From IMG/VR virus record IMGVR_UViG_2778261702_000019: a stretch of DNA of 4,963 nt, one strand, 5' to 3'. The translations under genes and the position numbers were made by a program. Below, in pieces: positions 1,664 to 2,215 of this stretch (positions are counted from its first letter, which is position 1; the number at the start of each line of letters is the position of its first letter). The notes beneath the pieces were generated by a model. That model did no database searches. It was not told the origin of the DNA and was given only the letters and a program-made list of their open reading frames with translations. This DNA comes from a virus. Its lineage: Duplodnaviria; Heunggongvirae; Uroviricota; Caudoviricetes.

Positions 1664-2215
1664 TTACTGACCTTTCTTAAGGTACAAGTTTATTAGGAAA
1701 AATATAGTTGGCATAGCAAGCGAGGCCAAGAGAACCCCGAGCATCCATACTTTTACATCTGCTATCTTGGTTTCCAAAGCGGAAAATTTAGCTTCAAAGT
1801 AGTCAACCGATGGTTTCTTAGATAATGAAGCATCAAAATCCAGGCTCTTCTGTAAAAGTACAGCGGTGTCTCTTTTGGCGTCAGTAGAATCAGAAGATAT
1901 TTTCCGGGTATCCTCTTTAATTCCTGCCATGCTGCTCTTGATGTGCGCAACTTCAGCTTCAAGAACTGCTAATCGCTTATCCATGTCGTCGCCTCCATCA
2001 TCACTTGTTGTTTGAATGATCTCAGTATCATCCATCACAACCGATGTGACAATCCGTTTTTCTTTATCTGAAGCAGCAACAGAACAAGCTTTCATCAAGA
2101 GCGTTGCTTGGCTTGATGCTACAGAAGAAAATTCCAGCCCTACTGTAGAGCCATTCTTATCAGAGTAAGCAATTACTAGCTTTCCCTCATCCAAAGATGA
2201 TTGAGCTGCATTCAT
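1664..2215 (-). CDS. Hypothetical protein, 183 aa: soluble N-terminal region, acidic linker, coiled-coil, single C-terminal TM helix
   Basis: ORF with SD GAGGA 7 nt upstream of the ATG; the upstream gene's TAA stop lies inside that SD region, indicating translational coupling. Hydrophobic segment VWMLGVLLASLAMPTIFFLINLY near the C-terminus followed by LKKGQ. Heptad-like region LAVLEAEVAHIKSSMAGIKEDTRK. No family recognised from memory. Confidence 0.75.
   Translation of the reverse strand: MNAAQSSLDEGKLVIAYSDKNGSTVGLEFSSVASSQATLLMKACSVAASDKEKRIVTSVVMDDTEIIQTTSDDGGDDMDKRLAVLEAEVAHIKSSMAGIKEDTRKISSDSTDAKRDTAVLLQKSLDFDASLSKKPSVDYFEAKFSALETKIADVKVWMLGVLLASLAMPTIFFLINLYLKKGQ

Follow-up and report, generated by a model that had tools for sequence, protein, structure and literature searches.

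The interval beside the repressor gene of temperate phages has yielded rexAB, bstA, and sieA, and in most lambdoid and P22-like phages its contents are uncharted. The stretch between cI and N has been described as a mosaic hotspot that houses rexAB and bstA (PMC8585504). What, then, is the role of the two unnamed genes that fill this slot in the 4,963-nucleotide stretch of caudoviricete DNA analyzed here (IMG/VR record IMGVR_UViG_2778261702_000019, hereafter the window)? Pfam matches and deposited annotations mark the window as a lambdoid immunity region with the gene order sieB, N, oL/pL, terminator, a 183-residue open reading frame (ORF), a 93-residue ORF, cI, oR/pRM/pR, cro, cII, and an O gene disrupted by an insertion sequence (IS). 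Positions 1600-2620 match the Shiga toxin 1 (Stx1) prophage VT1-Sakai (Sp15 in E. coli O157:H7 Sakai) at 100% identity and phage HK544 at 99.5%; the cassette occupies the repressor-adjacent slot of this prophage, which is of medical relevance, and of many other temperate phages, where its products are annotated as hypothetical proteins. This gene order places the pair between cI and the terminator Timm, and thus at the position held by rexA-rexB in lambda. We propose, with a probability of roughly one half, that the 183-residue protein (here the effector) and the 93-residue protein (here the partner) form a lysogen-expressed, Rex-like two-gene phage-exclusion cassette of the sensor/effector kind.

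The organization of the locus is that of an operon headed by the repressor gene. The Timm-like intrinsic terminator beyond the 183-residue ORF, which is also annotated in AP000400 and EF120455, is the end of the cI-partner-effector transcript, and no convincing terminator was found in the interval between cI and the cassette. Shine-Dalgarno (SD) sequences precede both ORFs, which are separated by only 6 nucleotides (nt); the SD of the effector is embedded in the final codons of the partner gene. A promoter-like site within the 183-residue ORF (2052-2024) is at chance level, with two sites found and 3.1 expected. The cassette has a G+C content of 41%, compared with 52% for cI, a composition resembling that of a moron. 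In the VT1-Sakai record AP000400 only H0053 is annotated of the pair; the 93-residue ORF, which has no annotation there, is annotated in HK544 and in RefSeq genomes.

The 183-residue ORF is present precisely as described in the initial annotation, which was made from the sequence alone, and the protein features listed there were all recovered: an N-terminal region of about 70 residues (residues 1-72), an acidic linker (TTSDDGGDDMDKR, residues 68-81), a heptad-like helical region, one hydrophobic helix five residues from the C terminus, and the absence of an N-terminal signal peptide. Read from its N terminus, the protein consists of a domain of about 72 residues, an acidic Gly hinge, a heptad helix, a short helix, the hydrophobic helix, and a five-residue tail. 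The membrane-helix and coiled-coil assignments are simple hydropathy and periodicity measures backed by comparative evidence. Hydrophobicity drawn from the family alignment over residues 79-132 reaches a power of 48 at the heptad period of 3.5, whereas column shuffles give 10 (p = 0.0045); the highest periodicity peak there, 2.35, equals 7/3, the second harmonic of the heptad repeat. One a/d register runs unbroken from L82 to L131 (L82, L85, V89, I92, M96, I99 ... L120, F127, L131). The top 19-residue Kyte-Doolittle mean (KD19) falls at residues 157-175 and reaches 2.15, residues 156-178 include no charged residue, and their summed Hessa-scale value is -0.25 kcal/mol. Over the first 60 residues KD19 peaks at only 0.96, and there is accordingly no signal-like segment at the N terminus. 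An AlphaFold2 model based on an 18-sequence alignment (predicted local distance difference test [pLDDT] 65; predicted template modeling score [pTM] 0.22) shows strands at 10-18 and 24-33, a helix at 34-48, disorder at 59-75, and helices at 78-132 and 137-182 with a break at KKPS. The N-terminal domain is predicted to be cytoplasmic and is the candidate partner-binding or sensing part, and the partner is a soluble, beta-rich protein with a C-terminal helix.

The best evidence for a membrane anchor at the C terminus is comparative, as its hydrophobicity is kept across tails that have no sequence conservation. A terminal hydrophobic segment (KD19 of at least 1.57, ending no more than 14 residues from the C terminus) is found in all 30 distinct cassettes examined, and one no more than 12 residues from the end is found in 87 of 126 short representatives. 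The cassette tails belong to four unrelated sequence types (..WMLGVLLASLAMPTIFFLINLYLKKGQ, ..QIVWTIVTALAVLGLARWIF, ..LLGVPAIIAIGTGLYKAFKHYM, and ..QIIWTIASFFTLISIASGIIIKTLHP), each with a basic residue 3-8 positions before the C terminus. The tail-anchored architecture put forward earlier is thus strongly supported, with a lone predicted transmembrane (TM) helix within about 30 residues of the C terminus and no signal peptide. From general knowledge of tail-anchored proteins we infer post-translational insertion and N-in/C-out as the only plausible orientation, because the TM helix emerges last from the ribosome, after 155 highly charged residues with neither an export signal nor an upstream TM helix. 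The E. coli tail-anchored proteins ElaB/YqjD and Flk likewise have basic residues at their C-terminal ends. The initial annotation had called the orientation ambiguous while pointing to the basic LKKGQ tail; the basic character of the tail holds in all four types, and the ambiguity is smaller than was claimed since the 155-residue charged part carries no signal.

The 183-residue gene is real and under strong purifying selection in every module. The ratio of nonsynonymous to synonymous substitution rates (dN/dS), calculated for homologous modules only, comes to 0.04 in the helix, 0.08-0.17 across the last 30 codons, and 0.05-0.2 in the N-terminal domain, and that of the partner is 0.08. In the family alignment the columns G74, G75, D76, R81, L85, E86, V89, I92, and K93 of the core are without variation, and K134 is also invariant. 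A word-indexed search recovered 21 clusters, restricted to the Enterobacterales and every one annotated as hypothetical, and an exhaustive profile search recovered 72 representatives at E <= 1e-10. Membership in the family was limited to matches of roughly this strength, since weaker relatives of 180-330 residues are generic coiled coils without an informative domain. Most of the 72 representatives are 90-185 residues long and match only positions 70-180; they share the hinge GGGGDM, LExRVAKLExDVxHIK, a long helix, DxAVxLQKxxDID..LSKKPS, a short helix, and a terminal hydrophobic helix.

The pairing and the link to a repressor extend well beyond the window. About 40 loci show the order repressor, small partner, tail-anchored protein on one strand. 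The order was recorded in Pantoea, Enterobacter, Citrobacter, and metagenomic prophages, a 124-residue Salmonella branch, a 107-residue branch, 44 IMG/VR contigs, and loci in Acidithiobacillus, an Aeromonas-type contig, and Pectobacterium, in which an integrase gene comes next. In all 10 distinct types tested the upstream protein is a helix-turn-helix (HTH)-S24 or CI-type repressor, and several immunity types are represented. A small ORF lies upstream of the effector in 29 of 30 distinct cassettes (gaps of +15 to -14 nt), which bears out the link to the 93-residue partner that had been drawn at the outset. Translational coupling is suggested by the 6-nt gap in the window and by overlaps of -8 or -14 nt in relatives. 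Two exceptions to this otherwise constant context show the two genes relocating together: in UPF_BP1, a P22-like phage, a homologous pair lies between mnt and gene 16, the slot taken by orf59a-sieA in P22, and in Salmonella phage S107 the pair lies between Rha genes and the tape-measure gene. As sieA is carried by only 22 of 66 P22-like phages (PMC10883804), other genes fill its slot in the rest. The exact allele of the window is present in about 2% of complete E. coli genomes, and searching genomes with the family pattern brought up only one locus, whose copy is frameshifted.

Three of the collected loci depart from the common layout. In a metagenome-assembled genome of Symbiopectobacterium (L019:2800-3347) the effector is split by a frameshift into ORFs of 127 and 60 residues and the partner is also truncated; the locus resembles a cassette undergoing decay in the genome of a symbiont. 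On one IMG/VR contig (L057, upstream of 2483) a 419-residue transposase-like ORF occupies the partner position, suggesting that an IS took the place of the partner or pushed it aside. A Pectobacterium prophage (L068:2962-3564) encodes a 200-residue Flk_N protein with its own C-terminal hydrophobic tail between the repressor and a Zn-ribbon/tail-anchored pair, and its repressor operon thus includes two tail-anchored proteins.

The cassette is modular. Its partners belong to three unrelated families, all of which are paired with the same output module: type A partners, among them that of the window, have 84-100 residues and are beta-rich with a C-terminal helix; type B partners have 106-136 residues with a CxxC...CxxC, Zn-ribbon-like pattern; and the Acidithiobacillus partner is a helical protein of 68 residues. 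Type A partners accompany effectors with an N-terminal domain of about 70 residues, which exists in at least four sequence types across the family, and those of type B go with effectors in which only about 20-30 residues come before the Gly hinge. Among type A cassettes, partner identity is strongly correlated with N-terminal domain identity (Mantel r = 0.95), which may reflect physical interaction or only linkage, as the two coding regions adjoin, and is weakly correlated with helix/tail identity (r = 0.39). The loci L058 and L061 have identical partners and N-terminal domains with different helices and tails; the window and L011, in turn, are 93% identical in their helix/tail modules and 22% identical in their N-terminal domains. 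Breakpoints in DNA identity fall at effector codons ~76-100, within the invariant core, in four independent pairs. Together with the pattern of identities, they show that the unit of partner plus N-terminal domain and the unit of helix plus tail are exchangeable at the joint DGGDxM..R..LE..V..IK.

Type B partners, with two CxxC pairs, lie upstream of the effector at L013, L014, L018, L066, and L068. Their effectors have a short strand-like motif ahead of the Gly hinge, such as PVIAYSDY or IYFGDFP, that resembles the first strand of the window N-terminal domain (KLVIAYSDK). At the nucleotide level the 19-codon core (1937-1999) is the same in the window and L011, the flanking N-terminal domain being saturated with substitutions and the downstream helix having a proportion of synonymous differences (pS) of 0.41. 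This suggests recent recombination at the core.

Neither protein could be assigned to a known system. Pfam, NCBIfam, and PADLOC scans gave zero matches for either, and in PHROGs both belong only to families of unknown function. Relatives of the effector match coiled-coil arms (LmuB, JetC, PbeC) weakly in PADLOC-DB 2.0, and their partners match nothing there. A PDB sequence search for solved relatives returned only chance coiled-coil matches (E >= 0.005). Foldseek searches of the effector model against PDB and BFVD gave no match at E < 0.09, an uninformative result as the model is mostly long helices with a pTM of 0.22. A Pfam census of 60 members produced only sub-threshold matches, mostly to generic coiled-coil models (FlaC, LPP, and SlyX among the noise); families of the same architecture recurred, namely XhlA in 19 of 60 (best E = 1e-4), DUF1664 in 24, and CCDC90-like/DUF1640 in 9. 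None of the members reaches the gathering score of XhlA (PF10779), and the window protein is unmatched even at E = 0.1. No functional study was found in the literature on ECs2992, HK544, or tail-anchored defense proteins, and the Tai paper uses HK544 merely as a test phage. Neither HepS nor the text of the DefensePredictor paper offers a system like the cassette.

A comparison with characterized systems shows where the likeness lies. Lambda RexAB, like the cassette, consists of two genes downstream of cI on a pRM transcript that ends at Timm, and, as in the pairs of Sbash, CarolAnn, and P. putida P1, the soluble protein comes first, the membrane protein second, and the pair is moron-like; a sensor plus membrane-effector logic is plausible for the cassette too. 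In the lambda system, abortive exclusion depends on both proteins and involves a loss of membrane potential. The proteins themselves differ: RexA is a DNA-binding dimer of 279 residues, whereas the partner has 93, and RexB is polytopic (four TM helices) and channel-like, whereas the effector combines a long coiled coil with one predicted C-terminal TM helix, its sole hydrophobic segment lying at 156-178. P22 SieA resembles the effector as a small, prophage-expressed inner-membrane protein without a signal peptide, and its slot is shared with a relative of the cassette, but SieA acts alone while the effector needs, or at least always has, a partner. SieA possesses three or possibly four TM helices along with a cytoplasmic FxRYPxEAxxFNK motif (PMC10883804); the 183-residue sequence lacks this motif and has one predicted TM helix rather than three to four. 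With RexB and SieA both polytopic and no defense model matching, the suggestion in the initial annotation that membrane-acting exclusion effectors typically show this topology is not supported. XhlA, DUF1664, and CCDC90-like/DUF1640 proteins also have a coiled coil that leads into a C-terminal TM helix, but they are without the Gly hinge, core motif, and repressor-linked partner of the effector, and XhlA is found in Bacillus phage lysis cassettes whereas the cassette relatives are repressor-adjacent or moron-like in the loci examined. E. coli ElaB/YqjD/YgaM, Flk, and DjlC have no signal peptide, a cytoplasmic N-terminal part, one extreme C-terminal TM helix, and a basic end. They are of the same topological class as the effector with no sequence similarity to it, and are chromosomal housekeeping or stress proteins whereas the effector is part of a phage moron with a partner. 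Thus, the cassette shares its position and two-component logic with Rex, its slot with SieA, and its architecture with XhlA-like proteins and, as no significant profile, sequence, or fold match was found, is a member of none of these families.

The exclusion reading draws on the position between cI and Timm, the constant linkage to a repressor, the pairing, the modularity, the architecture, and the selection acting on the cassette. Under this reading the cassette would be co-transcribed with cI from pRM in the lysogen, the transcript stopping at Timm. The effector would be C-tail-anchored in the inner membrane, with its N-terminal domain, Gly hinge, and coiled-coil stalk of roughly 50 residues in the cytoplasm, a single helix crossing the membrane, and no more than five residues in the periplasm. 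The soluble partner and the variable N-terminal domain would form the specificity, or sensing, unit, and the conserved helix and tail the output unit. An infection cue received through the partner and N-terminal domain could then alter how the coiled coil oligomerizes, and the clustering of tail helices that follows would perturb the inner membrane and abort the infection. A role in defense has, in our judgment, about even odds, and perturbation of the membrane as its specific output is less probable than that. Several observations weigh against the proposal. The cassette resembles no known defense protein in PADLOC, and neither protein shows homology to RexA/RexB or SieA in the Pfam, NCBIfam, and PADLOC scans or the PDB sequence search. 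A single tail helix would be an unusual pore former, and the type 3 tail (LLGVPAIIAIGTGLYK) is just marginally hydrophobic on the Hessa scale. The AlphaFold2 model of the effector is mediocre, that of the partner has a confidence too low to be usable (pLDDT 47), and the correlation between partner and N-terminal domain could be simple linkage.

Other roles for the pair account for part of the same evidence. The assignment of roles may be reversed, as in Butters gp30/gp31: the tail-anchored protein would tether or sequester the partner, which would itself be the toxic or antiviral effector and be freed upon infection. Such logic is known from this Rex-like mycobacteriophage pair (PMC12894663), and it would suit a cassette with tight translational coupling in which the partner is the more diverse component (three unrelated families, Zn-ribbon proteins included) and the conserved module could serve as a generic anchor. 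A mere anchor, however, needs no conserved 50-residue heptad helix, core, and LSKKPS held at a dN/dS of 0.04, and no enzymatic or toxin domain is recognizable in the partners by profile scans; we regard this reversal as unlikely. The effector could instead act constitutively in the manner of SieA, blocking DNA entry at the cytoplasmic face without killing, for example by binding inner-membrane ejection proteins or a host channel. The occupation of the sieA slot beside ejection gene 16 in UPF_BP1, a slot left open to other genes in P22-like phages, is consistent with this, but with no more than five periplasmic residues the effector cannot touch a periplasmic conduit, and it has one TM helix to SieA's three and no FxRYPxEAxxFNK motif. 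A variable soluble partner also suggests sensing rather than passive blocking, and the cassette occurs as well in siphoviral lambdoids and, beside tail genes, in S107, so that a SieA-like mode of action appears improbable.

A role outside defense, whether in lysogenic conversion or host physiology (as for ElaB/YqjD), in the timing of induction or lysis (as an XhlA-like accessory), or as an addiction module, would be in line with the sub-threshold likeness of 19 of 60 members to XhlA and with the DUF1664 and CCDC90-like matches, all families with a coiled coil and C-terminal TM helix. UniRef labels one relative "Hemolysin XhlA", and the gene order and overlaps are toxin-antitoxin-like. On the other hand, the cassette never lies within a lysis cassette in the loci examined, being repressor-linked or moron-like, no member scores as an XhlA protein, and the rapid exchange of the specificity unit is more in keeping with an arms race than with housekeeping; a role of this kind thus seems rather unlikely. 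Finally, the hydrophobic C terminus may pack within a soluble helical bundle instead of anchoring the protein, or the ORF may be unexpressed, a reading given some room by the modest confidence of the AlphaFold2 model. The charge-free run of 23 residues with a KD19 of 2.15, the retention of terminal hydrophobicity in four unrelated tails, purifying selection on all modules, and the presence of SD sequences and a terminator speak against it, and we consider it very improbable.

The joint between the modules includes a candidate internal start at Met78. The hinge codons are GAT GGA GGC GAC GAC ATG, and of 17 distinct hinges, 14 have an exact GGAGG at the same spacing from the ATG. GGA serves as the first Gly codon of the hinge in 14 of 16, compared with 21% elsewhere in the loci (p = 3e-8, not corrected for phylogeny), and the second Gly codon varies freely. 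Predicted pairing with the anti-SD is -9.3 kcal/mol at Met78 versus -5.9 at the annotated start. Met78 is nearly invariant, many database homologs are called from it, and single clusters mix long and short calls. In a control by synonymous recoding, the internal SD was suggestively stronger than expected (-9.4 observed versus -7.8 recoded) with no single sequence significant, because Gly-Gly-Asp is SD-like whatever codons are used. Initiation at Met78 may therefore give a 106-residue isoform that begins at the module boundary and consists of coiled coil and TM helix only, and the Gly hinge could have arisen in a gene fusion, as a ribosome-binding site that came to be translated. In P22 SieB/Esc and lambda S107/S105 one gene gives a full-length and an N-truncated protein with a common membrane module, a dual-start arrangement that lets phages self-regulate exclusion or lysis proteins. 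The same would apply here if Met78 is used, although internal initiation, unlike in those two cases, is deduced only from the conserved GGAGG-N7-ATG. A broader view, possible but doubtful, is that the loci from Enterobacterales to Acidithiobacillia represent an unrecognized family of exclusion systems in which an interchangeable small sensor (beta-rich, Zn-ribbon, or helical) is set on a conserved tail-anchored effector, and in which the internal start gives an isoform lacking the sensor part, acting to tune or self-inhibit the effector as Esc does SieB.

If the cassette is an exclusion system, it would add a tail-anchored coiled-coil type to the known membrane effectors and offer a sensor/effector design that is modular by nature, with interchangeable specificity units and a joint whose place is defined. 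It could also affect which phages are able to superinfect Shiga-toxin lysogens. The possible internal start is a simple regulatory idea that is open to test. Coordinates of the cassette and its surroundings are collected in Table 1.

Table 1. Features of the window, with the modules of the 183-residue protein listed in the order of their coding positions
Feature	Position	Strand	Basis and remarks
sieB	281-862	+	Pfam SieB, E = 1e-25
N	879-1151	-	Pfam/deposited annotation
oL/pL	about 1350-1420		Deposited annotation
Intrinsic terminator, Timm-like	1634-1657	-	9-bp stem and T run, 7 nt past the stop of the 183-residue ORF
183-residue ORF (ECs2992 / H0053 / HK544c103)	1664-2215	-	Stop codon 1664-1666; ECs2992 accessions NP_311019/BAB19609; PHROG 12602, unknown function
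LKKGQ tail	1667-1681	-	Directly after the hydrophobic helix
C-terminal hydrophobic helix, residues 156-178, predicted membrane anchor	1682-1750	-	KD19 2.15
Juxtamembrane helix, residues 137-155	1751-1807	-	AlphaFold2 helix 137-182; follows the conserved LSKKPS break
Heptad (coiled-coil) helix, residues 82-132	1820-1972	-	Periodicity test, register, AlphaFold2 helix 78-132
Invariant core, residues 73-93	1937-1999	-	DGGDDMDKRLAVLEAEVAHIK; Gly hinge and first heptads; mosaic joint of the family
Candidate internal start	1982-1996	-	GGAGG 1992-1996, 7 nt, ATG of Met78 1982-1984
Variable N-terminal domain, residues 1-72	2000-2215	-	Beta-hairpin and helix, then disordered acidic stretch (AlphaFold2)
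93-residue partner ORF (ECs2991 / HK544c104)	2222-2503	-	PHROG 12039, unknown function
cI repressor (HTH and S24)	2626-3264	-	Pfam; VT1-Sakai annotation; first gene of the operon
pRM and oR	about 3283-3351		VT1-Sakai annotation

Some features of the flanking sequence were also noted. The sieB homolog adjoins N, and the immunity region therefore already holds one known exclusion gene besides the candidate cassette. Between Timm and oL/pL (1430-1633) the plus strand is strongly G-rich (GC skew +0.38), so that the leftward transcript is C-rich there; this stretch could be a Rho-utilization-like backup against read-through from pRM. At the other end of the window (4250-4963), replication gene O is cut by an IS3-family element (IS1203/IS629; transposase ORF 4255-4953, minus strand), and the prophage copy is probably replication-defective. 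O is intact in VT1-Sakai, and the O/IS junction is shared with about 35-38 complete O157 genomes.

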